DNA of 45,609 nt from a phage. The notes below the pieces were generated by a model that was not told the DNA's origin, did not search any database, and saw only the letters and a program-made list of their open reading frames with translations. Positions within the stretch are counted from its first letter, which is position 1. Every line of letters begins with the position of its first letter. Of the stretch, positions 461-33,110 are shown in pieces. The stretch lies in NCBI GenBank assembly GCA_030873995.1, contig GCA_030873995.1_4701.1. The stretch is one strand, 5' to 3'. Both the position numbers and the translations under genes were made by a program.

Positions 461-1394
461 GTTCCTAGGTCTTCCAGAAGACCACCGCAATCACCCATTC
501 ATGCTGGTGAAGCATCGCGGTGAAGTTCCTGAGAAGAAATTAACTTTTCCATGTTATGCACAGGTGAAACGAGATGGTATCTTTTCTGCTGTTGTTGTTC
601 GCGCTGATGGTGTCGTTGGCATTTTTGGTCGCACTGGTAAGAAACTGGCAAACACTGAAGGCCTCGAACAAACCTTTGCTACCTTTCCGGTTGGCGTTTA
701 TCTTGGTGAGCTTCAGTCTATGGCCGTTGATATCTACCTTGAGGCGATCTCTGGGGTTGTGAACCCTAACCGCACCGAGCCTCTTGATTTCATAGGTCAG
801 CAGATTAAAGATAACCTGTATATCGACTTCTTCGATATGTTAACTATTAAGGCATTCCACGATGGATTCACTGATGTTTCTTATCTCAAACGTTACGATG
901 CTTTACATCGCCGCATCGGCGCTCATCTTAGCGGGTACAACGCTATCCTTCCTATTACTCCTTGCCATAATGAGCGAGAAGTTGAAGCGTTTGCGCAAGA
1001 GCAGATAGACGCAGGCCGAGAGGGCGCTGTGTTTAAACTGGACTGTGATTATGAAGCAGGCCATAAAGGTTATCGTCAGACTAAAGAAGTCCGTAAGGTA
1101 ACTTATGACCTTACTTGCATTGGCTTTGAAGAAGGTAAAGGCAAGTACAAAGGTAAGGTAGCTAACCTCATTTTCAAATGGAAAGAGGGCAAGACAATCA
1201 AAGCTATGTTAGGTAAAGGGTGGACTCATGCAGATGCAGAACAGATGTTCCACGACATTAAACATGGTGGACGATTGAATGTCATTGGTAAAATCTTTGA
1301 AGTCAAAGGTCTTCAGGATTCAAGCAAGGGCAACATTCGTCTGCCCAAAGCGGGAGAATTAAGACATGACAAAGATGAACCAGATTTCTTTTGA
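447..1394 (+). CDS. ATP-dependent DNA ligase
   Basis: 315 aa; KxDG adenylation motif (VKRDG), EGAVFK and basic KGK-rich C-terminal motifs; RBS GGAGGTGA. Confidence 0.7.
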   Translation: MNIFEFLGLPEDHRNHPFMLVKHRGEVPEKKLTFPCYAQVKRDGIFSAVVVRADGVVGIFGRTGKKLANTEGLEQTFATFPVGVYLGELQSMAVDIYLEAISGVVNPNRTEPLDFIGQQIKDNLYIDFFDMLTIKAFHDGFTDVSYLKRYDALHRRIGAHLSGYNAILPITPCHNEREVEAFAQEQIDAGREGAVFKLDCDYEAGHKGYRQTKEVRKVTYDLTCIGFEEGKGKYKGKVANLIFKWKEGKTIKAMLGKGWTHADAEQMFHDIKHGGRLNVIGKIFEVKGLQDSSKGNIRLPKAGELRHDKDEPDFF

Positions 1395-1581
1395 TAGTAT
1401 GAAGGCAACTCGTGCCGTTGAGGTAGCAGAAGCTATCTTTGAAACTTTATCTTGCGGCATGGAAGTGCCGTATACTTTATTGGCTGATGCAGAAGAACTT
1501 GGTCTTTCTGTAGAAGCTATCCAAGAGAAGGTTGAAGAACTCTATGGTACAGACGAAGAAGAAACCGACGATTTCATTTGA
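1366..1581 (+). CDS. hypothetical acidic protein (71 aa), C-terminus EEETDDFI
   Basis: ORF with GGGAG upstream; acidic tail ending in an aromatic residue. Confidence 0.4.
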   Translation: MTKMNQISFDSMKATRAVEVAEAIFETLSCGMEVPYTLLADAEELGLSVEAIQEKVEELYGTDEEETDDFI

Positions 1582-26999: not shown

Positions 27000-27686
27000 C
27001 CAAAGGTGGTCACAAAGTAACCAAAGTCAAAATTTTGATGTAGGCGTGTGTGAGGTGTCTCGCCCTCGCCCTCGCCGGGTTGTCCCCATAGGGTGGCCTG
27101 AGGGAATCCGTCTTCGACGGGCAGGGCTGATGTACTCCTTGCCTAGTACAAGGGAGGCGGAGTGAACGCCTGGGACGGCCTAGGGAATGGCTTAGTGGTG
27201 GACAAGGTGATTACCTTAGTGAAGCCTCTTAGTGCATTCCTTAGGCCATTCAGGGCGTTTATGAGGTATTGACAGGGTGGATGGGTGTGGGCTATCTGTT
27301 CGTTTCGCTACGCTTCACTCACTGCTCCTCACTTCGTTCGTCGCTGCGGTAGCCTGATGTGTACCTTAGGTTATTACTTGATGGATAGCTTAGGTTAGCC
27401 TTAGTGGATTACCTTAGTTAAAGCCTTAGTGCTTCACTTAGTATCAGCTTAGTAGTGTACCTTAGTCAGACTTAGTGTCTTCTCTTAGTGATTGCATAGC
27501 TAAAGCTATAAGATGCAAATAGGTCGCGGTCGGTAGACCGCTAAAGAAAGAGAATGGTAATAAGATGCAGTAGGAGGAACACCAGAAACCTAGCCAACCT
27601 AAGCTATCCTAGCTCTATATCTATTGCTTTTCCTTAGTCTAACACGTTAGACAACCTATCTTATTCTTAGTGATGGTAACTTAGTG

Positions 27687-27715
27687 TTGACAAGATAATC
27701 TTAGTGTAATACTAT
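27687..27715 (+). promoter_or_regulatory. sigma70-type early promoter candidate
   Basis: TTGACA, 17-bp spacer, TACTAT; first strong host-type promoter after the repeat-rich terminal region. Confidence 0.55.
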
Positions 27716-27787
27716 GCATCACGTAGGCGGTGCTGAGGCACCTAGTAGCCAGCTAGTAAGGCATACGAAGAGACTAGCGCTTACATT

Positions 27788-27800
27788 GCTCTTTAACAAT
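27788..27800 (+). promoter_or_regulatory. rrn-type boxA element (copy 1)
   Basis: GCTCTTTAACAAT identical to the rrn boxA core; about 65 nt after the predicted start of promoter 27687. Confidence 0.6.
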
Positions 27801-27858
27801 TTGCTTAGTGTAACCTATGTATGCCGTGGTTAATTACTTATTGAATGAGGTATTAACT

Positions 27859-28038
27859 ATGACATTAAACAACCGTGAACTATCCGTTCTCTTCACTCTG
27901 TTGTGCTACATGATTCGTAACAACGAATTGCTTACAGACGATGAGTTAGCCTTGTATCACCGCTTTCTTAACGAAGGTTGGACCGATACAGTTAATCAAT
28001 ACCGTAACATGATAGATGAGTTGAGGGAGGGTAAATAA
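27859..28038 (+). CDS. early hypothetical protein (59 aa)
   Basis: First ORF after a sigma70-like promoter and boxA; TGAGGT RBS. Confidence 0.5.
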   Translation: MTLNNRELSVLFTLLCYMIRNNELLTDDELALYHRFLNEGWTDTVNQYRNMIDELREGK

Positions 28039-28262
28039 TGTATCAACATGAGGTATTCTTTGAATCAGCTAGCGAAGCTATTCGCTTCCGTGATGATATG
28101 ATGCAAGCTGGTGTAGGCGTTGATGTGTATCACTATTTGATAGATTACGACACTGAATATCACCGAGTTACCTTAGTATCTGAGTATGACAACCAAGTCA
28201 TTACTGAGTATCTAGGCAGTGAAGATTACGATTACGATGAAGTAATCACGACAAATCTCTAA
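28038..28262 (+). CDS. early, highly acidic hypothetical protein (74 aa)
   Basis: TAATG coupling to the upstream ORF; GGAGGG RBS; 17 Asp/Glu against 3 Arg. Confidence 0.55.
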   Translation: MYQHEVFFESASEAIRFRDDMMQAGVGVDVYHYLIDYDTEYHRVTLVSEYDNQVITEYLGSEDYDYDEVITTNL

Positions 28263-28270
28263 ATTAACTG

Positions 28271-28299
28271 TTGACAGCCACGGCATACAAGGTTACATT
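28271..28299 (+). promoter_or_regulatory. sigma70-type early promoter candidate 2
   Basis: TTGACA, 17-bp spacer, TACATT. Confidence 0.4.
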
Positions 28300-28332
28300 A
28301 AGCATCAAGACGGCGACGTCTTTAAACATCCC

Positions 28333-28345
28333 GCTCTTTAACAAT
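28333..28345 (+). promoter_or_regulatory. rrn-type boxA element (copy 2)
   Basis: GCTCTTTAACAAT; preceded by hairpin AGACGGCGACGTCT (28308..28321). Confidence 0.6.
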
Positions 28346-28391
28346 ACGGTTTGTGTCTTGATAGGCTAACTAACTAACTAAGGTAATTATC

Positions 28392-28502
28392 ATGAAAGGT
28401 TTAATTTGTGTAGAACGTATGATCAATGGTAAACTTGAAATATTACCACTGGAAAACCAATCTAGCTTCAAAGAGTGGTATGGCTGTTTCTCACTGATTT
28501 AA
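28392..28502 (+). CDS. possible tiny ORF (36 aa) between the second and third boxA
   Basis: ATG with AAGGT upstream; no other support. Confidence 0.2.
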   Translation: MKGLICVERMINGKLEILPLENQSSFKEWYGCFSLI

Positions 28503-28544
28503 AGTAAAGGCTGGCACTAGTCAGCCTATCAAGGCGCAAACCAA

Positions 28545-28557
28545 GCTCTTTAACAAT
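28545..28557 (+). promoter_or_regulatory. rrn-type boxA element (copy 3)
   Basis: GCTCTTTAACAAT; preceded by hairpin AGGCTG-8nt-CAGCCT (28509..28528); upstream of ocr. Confidence 0.6.
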
Positions 28558-28653
28558 TTAGATGGTAGCTTCTTAGTCTGGATAGGTTAAACCTAGGGTA
28601 TTCTTTTGAGTACCCTATAATGTAACCTAACTAACTAAATGAGGATTAATAAC

Positions 28654-29013
28654 ATGGCTATGTCTAATATGACTTACTCTCAGGTTTACAACAACGCTCA
28701 TGCTGCATTAGTTGAACGTATCTGGAATGATGCTATTGATTGTATTGATAACGCACATGATGCAATCCATGATGTGGCGGATAGTGCTGTACCAATCTAT
28801 TATGCTGACATCTTCTCCGTGATGGCGAGTGAAGGAATTGATCATTTCTTCGAAGACTCCGGCCTGATGCCAGACACTAAGGATGTAACGGTAGTATTGC
28901 AAGCCCGTATCTATGAGCAACTCACAATTGATCTATGGGAACGTGTTCAGTATATGATTGTTGAATACATCAACTCCGCCGAATATTTAGAAGAAGAAGA
29001 AGAGGAAGAATAA
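28654..29013 (+). CDS. ocr: Ocr (T7 gp0.3) DNA-mimic anti-restriction protein
   Basis: MAMSNMTY...[49 protein letters not shown] closely matches T7 Ocr as recalled; poly-Glu tail; GAGGA RBS. Confidence 0.9.
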
Positions 29014-29014
29014 G

Positions 29015-29128
29015 ATGGAAAAGCTATACAACTTTATCTTTTCAGACGGTGTAACCCTGAAGTGTTCCCTACGATTCGCACAAATTCGTGAGGAAGTACT
29101 AGGCACTACATACAAACTATTTAGCTGA
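29015..29128 (+). CDS. small ORF (37 aa) directly after ocr
   Basis: ATG 2 nt after the ocr stop; no homology recognised. Confidence 0.35.
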   Translation: MEKLYNFIFSDGVTLKCSLRFAQIREEVLGTTYKLFS

Positions 29129-29141
29129 CACTATAAGAGAA
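29119..29141 (+). promoter_or_regulatory. variant phage-RNAP promoter candidate with A at +1
   Basis: ATTTAGCTGACACTATAAGAGAA; three mismatches at -12 to -10; lies in the early region upstream of the RNAP gene. Confidence 0.4.
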
Positions 29142-29204
29142 GGCTTAACAAGGCGTTGCTACGGTAGCGCCTGATTAAACTTTCACTTACTAGGAGTTAA
29201 GACT

Positions 29205-29432
29205 ATGGATTTAGATAGCATCATTATGGCATTTGCTCTTATTGGCTTAAGCTGGTGCTCCTATCACCTTTACCGTGAGTTCTTATTTGATAAAGCTAAA
29301 CGCAAACTAAGAAAGGAAGGCGGTAATTACCTTTGTGTAAGAGGTGGGCTTGTAGAATACATTGCACCTAACGGCACGGAATGCGCCATTAGCAAAGATG
29401 CATTTATAGAAACGTGGCATTACATCAAGTAA
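29205..29432 (+). CDS. early small membrane protein (75 aa)
   Basis: AGGAG RBS; N-terminal TM helix IIMAFALIGLSWCSY. Confidence 0.55.
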   Translation: MDLDSIIMAFALIGLSWCSYHLYREFLFDKAKRKLRKEGGNYLCVRGGLVEYIAPNGTECAISKDAFIETWHYIK

Positions 29433-29495
29433 CTAGCCTATAGCCTACCTGAGTGGGCTATGTGATATTTACTTACACTATATAAGGTGACTATT

Positions 29496-30419
29496 ATGAC
29501 TACTGAAAACACCCTCCTGTCTGTTCGTGAAGCTGCAACCGCTGAAATCAAGCAGCACTTAGACAATATCGGCACTTCTTACATCAAAGTTGGCGCTTGT
29601 CTGAATGAATTACGCGGTGATTTCGAAGGTCAAAAAGACTTTTTAGCTTATGTAGAATCAGAGTTTGGCATCAAGAAAGCACAATGCTACAAGCTGATGA
29701 GTGTAGCCCGTGTCTTTGAAGGAGACGAACGCTTTAAAGGTGTGGCTATGCGTGTAATGCTGGCGCTTGTTCCTTTCGCTGATGAAAATATAATCATGGA
29801 GAAGGCCGCAGAACTCGCCGCAGCTGGCAAGCTGGACACTAATGCCGTAAATGCCCTGATTGATCCTAAGAAAGAGACAAAGGCCGAGACGGTACAATCT
29901 AAGGCTGAGACAGTAAAACCGCAGGAGAACGCGACTGAGGCCGCAGAAACTATGCAAGGACATGCAACCTTTGAGGATTTCATCTTAGAGAAGGCGAAGG
30001 AGGAGTTACAAAGTGTGCCGCCAGTAAGTGAGTCGGGTAACGACGAATCCGCACCGTGGGAAGATGAAAGCAAGCCGGAAGGCACAAAGGCAGCACCGCT
30101 GGATAACACGGTTAATACCGAAAACGCCGCTATTGCTGGTCTGCTGGCACAAATTAAAGCACTGACCGAGCAATTACAGGCAGCTAATGACCGCATTGCC
30201 TCCTTAAGCAGCGCACGCGAAAGCAAGAAAGCAGCCGCGCCTATGCTGCCGCAATTCAAATCTTCCTGCTTCTATGCTCGCTTAGGTTTAAGCGCTGAGG
30301 AGGCAACGAAGAAAACAGCAGTTAACAAGGCACGCCGCGAACTGGTTAAGCTAGGCTACGGCGAAGGCCATGAAGCATGGCCCTTAATCTCTGAGGCAGT
30401 AGAAGAATTAACTAAGTAA
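29496..30419 (+). CDS. early protein of unknown function (307 aa) immediately upstream of the RNAP gene
   Basis: AAGGTG RBS; Ala/Glu-rich low-complexity middle; occupies the T7 gene 0.7 position but has no kinase motifs. Confidence 0.6.
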   Translation: MTTENTLLSVREAATAEIKQHLDNIGTSYIKVGACLNELRGDFEGQKDFLAYVESEFGIKKAQCYKLMSVARVFEGDERFKGVAMRVMLALVPFADENIIMEKAAELAAAGKLDTNAVNALIDPKKETKAETVQSKAETVKPQENATEAAETMQGHATFEDFILEKAKEELQSVPPVSESGNDESAPWEDESKPEGTKAAPLDNTVNTENAAIAGLLAQIKALTEQLQAANDRIASLSSARESKKAAAPMLPQFKSSCFYARLGLSAEEATKKTAVNKARRELVKLGYGEGHEAWPLISEAVEELTK

Positions 30420-30482
30420 CCTTATCGGTGGCATCTTCTTAGGTGTCACCTATTAAGGTTTCTTTCACTAGGAGTAAACAAG

Positions 30483-33110
30483 ATGCAAGACCTACACGCT
30501 ATTCAACTTCAACTTGAAGAAGAAATGTTTAACGGAGGTATCCGTCGCTTTGAAGCGGACCAACAACGCCAGATTGCATCCGGTAATGAATCCGACACGG
30601 CATGGAATCGCCGCTTATTGTCTGAGTTAATCGCGCCAATGGCTGAAGGCATTCAGGCATACAAGGAAGAGTATGAAGGTAAAAGAGGCCGTGCACCGCG
30701 TGCATTAGCTTTCATTAACTGCGTAGAAAACGAAGTGGCAGCATATATCACGATGAAAATCGTTATGGATATGCTGAACACGGATGTAACCTTGCAGGCT
30801 ATAGCCATGAATGTAGCTGACCGCATTGAGGACCAAGTACGTTTTAGCAAGCTGGAAGGTCACGCCGCCAAATACTTTGAGAAAGTTAAGAAGTCACTTA
30901 AGGCAAGTAAGACTAAATCATATCGCCATGCGCACAACGTAGCGGTCGTGGCTGAGAAGTCAGTAGCTGACCGTGACGCTGATTTCTCTCGCTGGGAGGC
31001 GTGGCCTAAAGATACCTTGCTACAAATCGGTATGACCTTGCTAGAAATACTGGAAAATAGTGTATTCTTCAATGGTCAGCCTGTCTTTCTTCGCACCTTG
31101 CGCACTAATGGTGGCAAGCATGGCGTTTACTACTTACAGACTAGCGAACACGTGGGTGAATGGATAACTGCATTTAAAGAGCACGTAGCTCAGCTGAGTC
31201 CAGCCTATGCGCCTTGCGTTATTCCTCCTCGTCCGTGGGTTTCTCCGTTTAATGGTGGCTTCCATACCGAGAAAGTGGCGAGTCGTATTCGTCTGGTTAA
31301 AGGAAACCGCGAGCACGTCCGCAAGCTGACCAAAAAGCAAATGCCAGCGGTTTACAAGGCTGTTAACGCTTTGCAGGCGACTAAGTGGCAGGTTAATAAA
31401 GAGGTTTTGCAGGTAGTAGAGGACGTTATCCGTCTCGACCTTGGTTATGGTGTGCCTTCCTTTAAACCGCTCATCGACCGTGAGAACAAGCCAGCTAATC
31501 CAGTGCCGTTAGAGTTCCAGCACCTGCGAGGCCGTGAACTTAAAGAGATGCTAACGCCGGAACAATGGCAAGCCTTCATCAACTGGAAAGGCGAATGTAC
31601 CAAGCTGTATACCGCTGAAACTAAGCGCGGCAGCAAGTCGGCGGCAACCGTTCGTATGGTCGGGCAGGCCCGTAAATACAGCCAGTTTGACGCAATATAC
31701 TTCGTGTATGCACTGGATAGCCGTTCACGCGTTTATGCGCAATCTAGCACGCTCTCGCCGCAATCAAACGACTTAGGCAAGGCATTGCTCCGTTTTACCG
31801 AAGGGCAGCGTCTTGATAGCGCTGAGGCGCTTAAGTGGTTTTTGGTGAACGGGGCGAATAACTGGGGTTGGGATAAGAAAACTTTTGACGTGCGCACCTC
31901 TAACGTGCTGGATGGCGAATTTCAAGACATGTGCCGCGACATTGCAGCCGATCCGCTGACCTTCACTCAATGGGTAAATGCTGATTCCCCTTACGGCTTC
32001 CTTGCATGGTGCTTTGAATATGCGCGTTATCTGGATGCACTGGATGAAGGCACGCAAGACCAATTCATGACGCACCTACCCGTCCATCAAGACGGTAGTT
32101 GCTCTGGTATCCAGCACTATAGCGCGATGTTACGCGATGAAGTAGGTGCGAAAGCAGTAAACCTTAAGCCTTCTGACTTCCCTCAAGATATTTATGGCGC
32201 GGTTGCGCAGGTTGTTATCCAGAAGAATTACGCCTACATGAATGCAGACGATGCAGAGACTTTCACATCTGGAAGCGTCACACTTACAGGTGCAGAACTG
32301 CGTAGCATGGCTAGTGCGTGGGATATGATAGGAATAACTCGCGGATTGACCAAAAAGCCCGTAATGACACTACCTTATGGCAGCACACGTCTAACCTGCC
32401 GTGAATCAGTGATTGATTATATCGTTGATTTGGAAGAAAAAGAGGCCCAACGAGCTATTGCGGAAGGGCGTACCGCCAATCCTGTACACCCTTTTGATAA
32501 TGACCGTAAGGACAGCCTGACACCTAGCGCAGCTTATAACTATATGACAGCTTTAATCTGGCCTTCTATTTCGGAAGTGGTTAAAGCTCCTATAGTGGCA
32601 ATGAAAATGATTCGTCAGCTTGCCCGTTTCGCAGCTAAAAGGAATGAAGGCTTAGAGTATACCTTGCCTACTGGCTTCATCTTGCAACAAAAGATTATGG
32701 CTACTGATATGCTCCGCGTATCCACTTGCCTGATGGGAGAAATCAAGATGAGTCTACAGATTGAAACGGACGTAGTGGATGAAACGGCTATGATGGGCGC
32801 TGCTGCTCCTAACTTTGTGCATGGTCATGATGCCAGTCACCTTATCTTAACAGTCTGCGACCTTGTTGATAAAGGGATTACATCTATCGCAGTCATTCAT
32901 GATTCTTTCGGTACTCACGCAGGCCGTACAGCCGATCTTCGTGATAGCTTAAGGGCAGAAATGGTGAAGATGTATCAAGGCCGTAATGCCCTGCAAAGCC
33001 TGTTAGATGAGCATGAAGAACGCTGGTTAGTAGACACCGGAATCCAAGTGCCAGAGCAAGGAGAGTTTGACCTTAACGAAATCTTAGTATCTGACTATTG
33101 CTTCGCATAA
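30483..33110 (+). CDS. single-subunit DNA-dependent RNA polymerase (T7/SP6 type)
   Basis: 875 aa; [17 protein letters not shown] and HDSFGT catalytic motifs; C-terminus ends CFA. Confidence 0.95.

Follow-up and report, generated by a model that had tools for sequence, protein, structure and literature searches.

Two coupled genes ahead of ocr

The window analysed here, a stretch of phage DNA of 45,609 nucleotides (nt) (GenBank assembly GCA_030873995.1, contig GCA_030873995.1_4701.1), comes from a Vectrevirus (K1-5/K1E-like, Molineuxvirinae, SP6-type RNA polymerase) and is circularly permuted. Our subject is a pair of small genes in its early region, gene 1 and gene 2, which precede the anti-restriction gene ocr (Table 1), and in particular gp2, the product of gene 2. 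An initial annotation made from the sequence alone had described the pair as two translationally coupled open reading frames (ORFs) that are extra to the layout of T7, had recognised no family for them, and had proposed that the very acidic second product is a DNA or nucleic-acid mimic directed against host defences. The coordinates of both ORFs, the composition of gp2 and the presence of ocr downstream were all borne out: gp2 contains 17 Asp/Glu, 3 Lys/Arg and 9 Tyr in 74 amino acids (aa), with an isoelectric point of 4.05 and a net charge of -14, and the ocr product matches PF08684 with an expectation value (E) of 4e-41. Among the 54 plus-strand ORFs in the window that encode 60 aa or more, only one has a more acidic product than gp2, whose charge density resembles that of Ocr.

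Gene 1 begins at an ATG with GAGG 8 nt upstream, and its SP6 and VEc3 orthologues begin at the same Met (27859). We rejected an alternative ATG at 27817, which has no ribosome-binding site and at which the orthologues do not start. The stop codon of gene 1 and the start codon of gene 2 overlap by 1 nt, the shared A of TAATG, the sequence upstream of the gene 2 start reads GAGGGAGG, and the two genes are translationally coupled. While the coupled pair does precede ocr, it is not directly joined to it: the two are separated by a spacer of 391 nt (28263-28653), in which lie a separate sigma70-like promoter, a 36-aa ORF and two boxA-like motifs. We consider both ORFs to be real genes, based on about 100 phage records with the same position, pairwise ratios of non-synonymous to synonymous substitution rates (omega, dN/dS) of 0.05-0.47 for gp2, and AlphaFold2 models with predicted local distance difference test (pLDDT) scores of 92 for gp2 and 84 for gp1. 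Genes 1 and 2 are the first genes to enter the cell and are probably transcribed by the host RNA polymerase from the leftmost strong promoter.

Comparison with sequenced phages leaves virtually no doubt that the pair corresponds to genes 1 and 2 of K1-5-type Vectrevirus (SP6-like Autographiviridae), with gp2 belonging to PHROG 6403. Both gp1 and gp2 are 100% identical to the products of K1-5 gene 1 and gene 2, where gene 2 likewise sits between gene 1 and ocr; identity to the K1E counterpart of gp2 is 98.6%. In profile searches, gp1 matched phrog_9275 (E 2e-40) and gp2 matched phrog_6403 over its full length (E 2e-29), both families being of unknown function. The latter PHROG was also matched by 33 of the 33 aligned gp2 homologues, by SP6 gp2 (E 2e-32) and by orf24 of phage VEc3. 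The statement that no family could be recognised is therefore superseded, and with it the implied novelty, K1-5 genes 1 and 2 having long been catalogued. Likewise, the genes are extra relative to T7 only, and form the standard layout of SP6-like phages: the order gene 1, gene 2, anti-restriction gene and RNA polymerase gene is common to the window, K1-5, K1E, SP6, VEc3 and CrRp3, and SP6 gene 3, which follows genes 1 and 2, encodes an Ocr homologue. As a sequence feature, the pair is ordinary: it is the K1-5 reference pair, it occurs in about 100 sequenced phages, and it has already formed part of a functional screen.

Using tblastn, we found K1-5-type gp2 in 65 phage records (E. coli phages account for 59) and a second allele class together with more distant relatives in 49 records from Salmonella, Klebsiella, Citrobacter, Lelliottia and Raoultella phages; gp1 was present in 102 records. 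A tblastn search with a divergent family member added no further phage groups. In a database of 5.8 billion proteins, the gp2 family occurred only on contigs no longer than one phage genome, about 46 kb. Exhaustive phmmer against 1.8 billion representatives returned the family itself and a single repetitive protein of 1952 aa (E 9e-7, summed over five weak repeats), which shares no family motif and which we dismissed as an artefact of repeat summation. Scans of gp1 and gp2 against Pfam, NCBIfam and PADLOC gave no match, in the case of gp2 and Pfam even at an E of 1; the Pfam scan of 33 family members produced scattered chance matches only (E at least 0.008), and a profile search of PDB sequences with gp2 returned nothing below an E of 0.37. 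Our literature search, which did not cover the original SP6 genome paper, found nothing on the function of these genes.

Members of the gp2 family are recognisable by a length of 69-77 aa, an N-terminal M-[YF]-x-H-E-[IV]-[YF] and a C-terminal [DE]-[DE]-V-I-T, all of which are present in the window protein. In our two family alignments, A3 and A4, H4 and V44 are invariant, while E5 is invariant in A3 but replaced by Thr in SP6 gp2 (A4); V69, I70 and T71 never vary in A4 and are conserved to 90% or more in A3.

Gene 2 as a variable cassette

When the early proteins of the window were compared with those of SP6, gp2 stood apart with an identity of 22%, against 64% for gp1, 60% for Ocr, 68% for gp4, 64% for gp6 and 86% for the RNA polymerase. 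SP6 gp2 nevertheless shares the motifs MFKH.IYT and YEDVIT with the window protein, which has 5 additional residues in helix 1 and the loop after it and carries a net charge of -14 as compared to -7. At the DNA level, the window and VEc3 are 90% identical through gene 1 up to 28013, and similarity resumes at 92% from 28260, 2 nt short of where the stop codon of gene 2 ends, whereas no nucleotide similarity is detectable in between, across gene 2 itself. Between these flanks VEc3 carries orf24, which overlaps the end of gene 1, lies upstream of ocr and is thus a positional allele of gene 2. When aligned with the gp2 family, orf24 gave an hhalign probability of 98.2% (E 3.9e-14), although the 69-aa protein is only about 18% identical to window gp2 in the profile alignment, differs from it by indels in helix 1 and the acidic loop, and is not acidic, with about 8 Asp/Glu against 8 Lys/Arg by hand count. 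Since the VEc3 protein is homologous though the DNA similarity is confined to the flanks, gene 2 behaves as an allelic cassette. We distinguished at least six gp2 allele classes below 40% identity, between which helices and loops are replaced wholesale while the N-terminal strand of the scaffold, V44 and the C-terminal strand are kept.

Exchange has also occurred within the gene. Between the window and ULINTec6, codons 44-74 of gene 2 have a dS of 0, whereas codons 1-43 show a dS of 0.7 and a dN of 0.25, a pattern that reveals a recombination breakpoint, and hence mosaicism, inside gene 2. Furthermore, four Klebsiella and Lelliottia phages encode a gp2 homologue without a detectable gp1, phages of these two host genera also have homologues without ocr, and in phD2B the neighbour of the gp2 homologue is instead annotated as a putative SAM hydrolase. 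Because homologues occur without gp1 and without ocr, gp2 can be regarded as independent of either neighbour. The pairwise omega values given above indicate that gene 2 is under purifying selection.

We further considered how far the acidity of gp2 extends across its family. Members of the K1-5 class have net charges between -15 and -11 and those of the divergent classes span -9 to +1, the class found in Klebsiella and Lelliottia phages having values of -3 to +1. No more than 5 of the 17 acidic positions (E5, D38, E40, D67 and E68) keep an acid in at least 86% of divergent members, and the remaining 12 do so in at most 55%. Extreme acidity is hence limited to the E. coli K1-5 clade rather than being common to the family. 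Within Vectrevirus, the acidic C-terminal half of gp2 (codons 44-74) has omega values of 0.02-0.14 in pairs with a dS above about 0.5 (dS up to 1.3); as this half is so strongly constrained there, the acidic surface matters for the clade.

Predicted fold, screening data and candidate roles of gp2

An AlphaFold2 model of gp2, built from the alignment of 33 family members, reached a mean pLDDT of 92.3 and comprises strands at residues 2-8, 28-36, 39-48 and 68-73 and helices at 11-23 and 52-61. It predicts with high confidence a compact single-domain ferredoxin-like beta-alpha-beta-beta-alpha-beta fold. When this model was searched against a viral structure library, six matches had an E of 0.001 or lower, four of which are uncharacterised phage proteins of 69-74 aa, including proteins of Citrobacter, Pectobacterium and Proteus phages; the Citrobacter phage is CrRp3, itself a Vectrevirus. 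For gp1, AlphaFold2 predicted a three-helix bundle (pLDDT 84), and a search with this model gave no informative structural neighbour. Projected onto the gp2 model, the conserved residues would mostly serve the scaffold, with I/V6, V44 and V69 facing the core and H4 opposite T71, while the open face of the sheet would carry a partly conserved strip (E5, F/Y7, Y/M41, E68 and I70). The clade-specific acids D19, D20, E49, D51, E57, E62, D63 and D65 are predicted to lie on helices and loops. A candidate metal site formed by H4 and D67/E68 was rejected, as the strand pairing places H4 opposite T71 and far from D67/E68.

Two members of the gp2 family are contained in a published screen in which 200 accessory genes from variable regions of enterobacterial phages were expressed in wild E. 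coli, with and without infection, the design covering 45 pairings of host and phage with 8 model phages (Silas et al., bioRxiv 10.1101/2023.04.06.535777). According to Supplementary File 3 of that study, UDP0096 (orf96) is AFH19829.1 of phage ACG-C91 and UDP0024 (orf24) is AUE22229.1 of phage VEc3 (bioRxiv 10.1101/2023.04.06.535777). The authors placed orf24 in the ocr accessory region and found that it causes growth arrest in ECOR61 via a prophage-encoded six-gene system with a likely Icd-like effector, and the restriction inhibitors Ocr, Ral and ArdA scored in their MG1655/lambda pools (bioRxiv 10.1101/2023.04.06.535777). By our comparison, orf96, the gp2 of ACG-C91, is 97% identical to window gp2. 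It is absent from the list of phenotype-giving accessory genes, and neither the text nor the screen notes mention it otherwise (bioRxiv 10.1101/2023.04.06.535777), so that the cell-death trigger phenotype is reported for orf24 only.

The explanation that we favour as a whole, and to which we would give a probability of roughly 45%, is that the locus carries K1-5-type genes 1 and 2 and that gp2 works as an accessory factor that binds a protein stoichiometrically at the interface between phage and host immunity. The variable surface of gp2 would bind a host or prophage protein, and this surface would diversify under selection by host sensors against any variant that they can recognise, the ECOR61 prophage system that responds to orf24 being an example. 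On this view, the coat of acidic residues and Tyr on the K1-5 allele would represent one clade-specific and strongly conserved version of the surface rather than a DNA mimic of the Ocr type. A role of gp2 at the host-defence interface is plausible because genes 1 and 2 are the first host-transcribed genes, belong to the ocr accessory region and show cassette replacement, and because the homologous orf24 is sensed by a prophage abortive system; this part of the earlier proposal stands. The mechanism itself, protein binding at the immunity interface combined with sensor-driven surface diversification, we put forward tentatively, at somewhat less than even odds.

Several observations weigh against this explanation. 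The near-universal presence of the family in SP6-like phages would also fit a conserved takeover function. No pairwise comparison gave an omega above 1 for gene 2, and diversifying selection is consequently suggested only by the cassette pattern and by divergence relative to the flanks. The map of a conserved core and a variable surface is drawn from the alignment and from predicted secondary structure. Finally, the near-identical orf96 had no listed counter-defence or cell-death phenotype in any of the 45 phage-host combinations with the 8 model phages. The absence of a phenotype against any defence system had been named in the initial annotation as an outcome that would speak against its proposal, and the screen comes close to this; the result is not conclusive, however, as the phages were heterologous and the hosts limited.

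Of the competing explanations, the one that fares best, though still unlikely, is that gp2 takes part in host takeover by inhibiting a conserved housekeeping protein of Enterobacteriaceae, such as RNA polymerase or a cell-division or nucleoid protein, in the manner of T7 0.4, 0.6 and 0.7. The gp2 family is near-universal in SP6-like enterobacterial phages and always lies in the earliest transcription unit, its scaffold motifs are kept across genera, and the small early genes of SP6-like phages differ from the T7 set, all of which would suit such a function. On the other hand, alleles below 40% identity occur in phages of a single host species with flanks that are about 90% identical, which is a poor fit to a single target surface, and orf96 was not reported to be toxic in any host of the screen. 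A more specific variant, in which gp2 would be an RNA polymerase inhibitor resembling T7 Gp2, was discarded: structure and sequence give it no support, and it is implausible given that the host polymerase is still required to reach the phage RNA polymerase gene.

We consider it improbable that gp2 is a DNA or nucleic-acid mimic whose carboxylates, standing in for phosphates, would block a DNA-binding enzyme of host defence (restriction-modification, BREX, RecBCD or similar), in the way that Ocr inhibits type I restriction-modification and BREX. The two proteins are alike in being small, in their position in the same early region, in their isoelectric point of 4.05 and in a charge density that, at net -14 over 74 residues, equals that of the Ocr encoded in the window. 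The early expression of gene 2 beside ocr and the very strong purifying selection on the acidic C-terminal half in Vectrevirus also accord with mimicry, and small alpha/beta DNA mimics are known, such as UGI and AcrIIA4. However, gp2 and Ocr have no sequence relation, PF08684 being matched by the gene 3 product and not by gp2. The solved structure of T7 gp0.3 Ocr is an elongated helical dimer that imitates bent B-DNA, whereas the gp2 model is an alpha/beta ferredoxin-like globule without a Pfam or PDB sequence match. Nor is the negative charge pattern conserved as would be expected of an Ocr-type mimic: net charge in the gp2 family spans -15 to +1, near-neutral homologues occupy the same position in Klebsiella and Lelliottia phages, and most of the acidic positions are not retained. 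In addition, Ocr is already encoded by the phage, and orf96 was present in the MG1655/lambda pools in which ocr, ral and ardA scored, yet has no listed phenotype. Taken together, the fold, the unconserved charge and the outcome for orf96 leave the mimicry part of the initial annotation unsupported.

A further proposal treats gene 2 as an arms-race locus, in which one ferredoxin-like scaffold presents interchangeable surfaces that disable, or escape detection by, different immune components of host or prophage. The hyper-acidic, Tyr-rich K1-5 allele would here imitate the charge of an acidic protein tail or of nucleic acid and would block a defence that the screen did not sample, for example one specific to SP6-like phages or present only in K1-capsulated hosts; we rate this conjecture as improbable as well.

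It is very improbable that gp2 is a minimal trimer of the CutA or PII-like type that binds a nucleotide second messenger or a metal between its subunits and acts as a sponge for immune signals. The ferredoxin-like core of CutA1, PII-like proteins and ACT domains is indeed present in the gp2 model, and the hydrophobic residues V69 and I70, which the alignment and the predicted strands place on both faces of strand 4, may imply that something covers the open face of the sheet, oligomerisation being one possibility. Yet identity to these proteins is 8-16% with no match to Pfam, NCBIfam or PDB profiles, so that the similarity is one of generic fold alone, and the gp2 alignment contains no conserved basic or Gly-rich ligand motif. 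The T-loop is the ligand and partner site of PII proteins, and gp2, with 74 aa against 89-112 residues in the structurally matched CutA and PII-like chains, has no room for it. We give almost no credence to the idea that gp1 and gp2 form an obligate two-protein module whose stoichiometry is set by coupling, since, despite the stop/start overlap in the window, K1-5, SP6, VEc3, CrRp3, ULINTec6 and others, K1E has a gene 1.5 inserted between genes 1 and 2, the four Klebsiella and Lelliottia phages mentioned above lack a detectable gp1, and gp1 is 64-100% conserved while gp2 is swapped, which interacting surfaces would not tolerate.

Genes 1 and 2 encode the first protein pair made by therapeutically used phages of K1-capsulated E. 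coli. With its conserved scaffold, its cassette-swapped surfaces and one allele that is sensed by a prophage abortive system, gene 2 provides a clean example of this kind of variation. The binding target of the acidic allele would tell whether phages swap alleles to escape sensors, and could bear on the host range of therapeutic Vectrevirus phages.

Layout of the early region

The features of the early region are collected in Table 1. The left genome end lies near 27050 and is followed by an array of CTTAG[GT] motifs and then by the early region. We counted 21 such motifs between 27191 and 27809, all on the plus strand and with a spacing of about 12 nt within 27400-27489; situated just inside the left genome end, the array is reminiscent of the short repeat arrays adjoining the terminal repeat of T7. 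Over the 1.7 kb surrounding genes 1 and 2, identity to the best-matching Vectrevirus genomes is 92-98%. The RNA polymerase gene extends from 30483 to 33110, the identity to SP6 RNA polymerase given above applying to its first 536 residues.

Table 1. Features of the early region and positions of the phage promoter motif in the window.
Feature	Position	Strand	Remarks
Sigma70-like early promoter, TTGACA-17-TACTAT	27687..27715	+	10/12 consensus matches, consensus match only; first strong host-polymerase promoter 5' of gene 1
boxA-like motif GCTCTTTAACAA, copy 1	27788..27799	+	Exact match
Gene 1, 59 aa	27859..28038	+	Three-helix bundle (predicted); early core protein conserved in SP6-like phages
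Gene 2, 74 aa	28038..28262	+	Very acidic, Tyr-rich, predicted ferredoxin-like; K1-5 allele of hypervariable cassette
Second sigma70-like promoter, TTGACA-17-TACATT	28271..28299	+	10/12 consensus matches, consensus match only; 9 nt past gene 2 stop; for ocr unit
boxA-like motif GCTCTTTAACAA, copy 2	28333..28344	+	6-bp hairpin before motif
36-aa ORF in gene 2-ocr spacer	28392..28502	+	Weak ribosome-binding site; coding status uncertain
boxA-like motif GCTCTTTAACAA, copy 3	28545..28556	+	8-bp hairpin before motif, ~28508-28527; fold z-score -2.5
ocr (gene 3), DNA-mimic anti-restriction protein	28654..29013	+	PF08684 E 3.8e-41; phrog_2568 E 9e-47
Phage promoter core TTAGNTGACACTATA	29121-29135, plus eleven others, e.g. 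4851, 20654, 33204, 45272	+	Core match

The motif GCTCTTTAACAA, identical to the core of boxA, the antitermination signal of E. coli rrn operons, occurs in three exact copies, all on the plus strand and all in the early region, whereas none of 100 shuffled sequences contained three copies. Two of the copies lie 37-75 nt 3' of a sigma70-like promoter and the third has no called promoter upstream; a short hairpin precedes each copy, reproducing the boxB-boxA order of rrn operons. The combination of boxA-like motifs and hairpins suggests that early transcription by the host polymerase may be subject to antitermination dependent on Nus factors.

The core of the SP6-type phage promoter, TTAGNTGACACTATA, has 12 plus-strand matches in the window as compared to 0.56 expected by chance. 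The first match past the left genome end is located at the 3' end of gene 4, and no SP6-type promoter motif was found between the left genome end (about 27050) and 29121. As this is the first match, genes 1, 2 and ocr have no phage promoter of their own.

The 36-aa ORF between gene 2 and ocr is annotated in some relatives only and matched nothing in PHROG, Pfam, NCBIfam or PADLOC. At the same site, K1E and ULINTec6 have unrelated small genes (2.5 and 2.8), and because of these the gene 2-ocr spacer can be viewed as a second variable slot. We also observed two allele classes of Ocr within Vectrevirus. The Ocr of the window is 93-97% identical to that of EC120, 6948, UKE1, AAPEc6 and VEc3. Against K1-5, K1E, ULINTec6, SP6 and the remaining phages compared, Ocr identity is only 54-66%, despite the identity of gp1 and gp2 with those of K1-5. 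The early region is a mosaic whose cassettes have been exchanged independently.

Between genes 4 and 5, a hairpin-forming stretch (29128-29199) partly overlaps the phage promoter motif at 29121-29135. When 27000-30600 was scanned with Rfam, the only return was a sub-threshold match to a miRNA model at this place (25 bits, the gathering score being 97). We take it to be a chance match to a stem-loop; the hairpin could be an RNase III site or a terminator. Elsewhere in the window, the most acidic ORF encodes a 71-aa product (1366-1581, plus strand) with a net charge fraction of -0.20; it belongs to phrog_5860, a family of unknown function, and overlaps the end of an upstream ORF of 315 aa.
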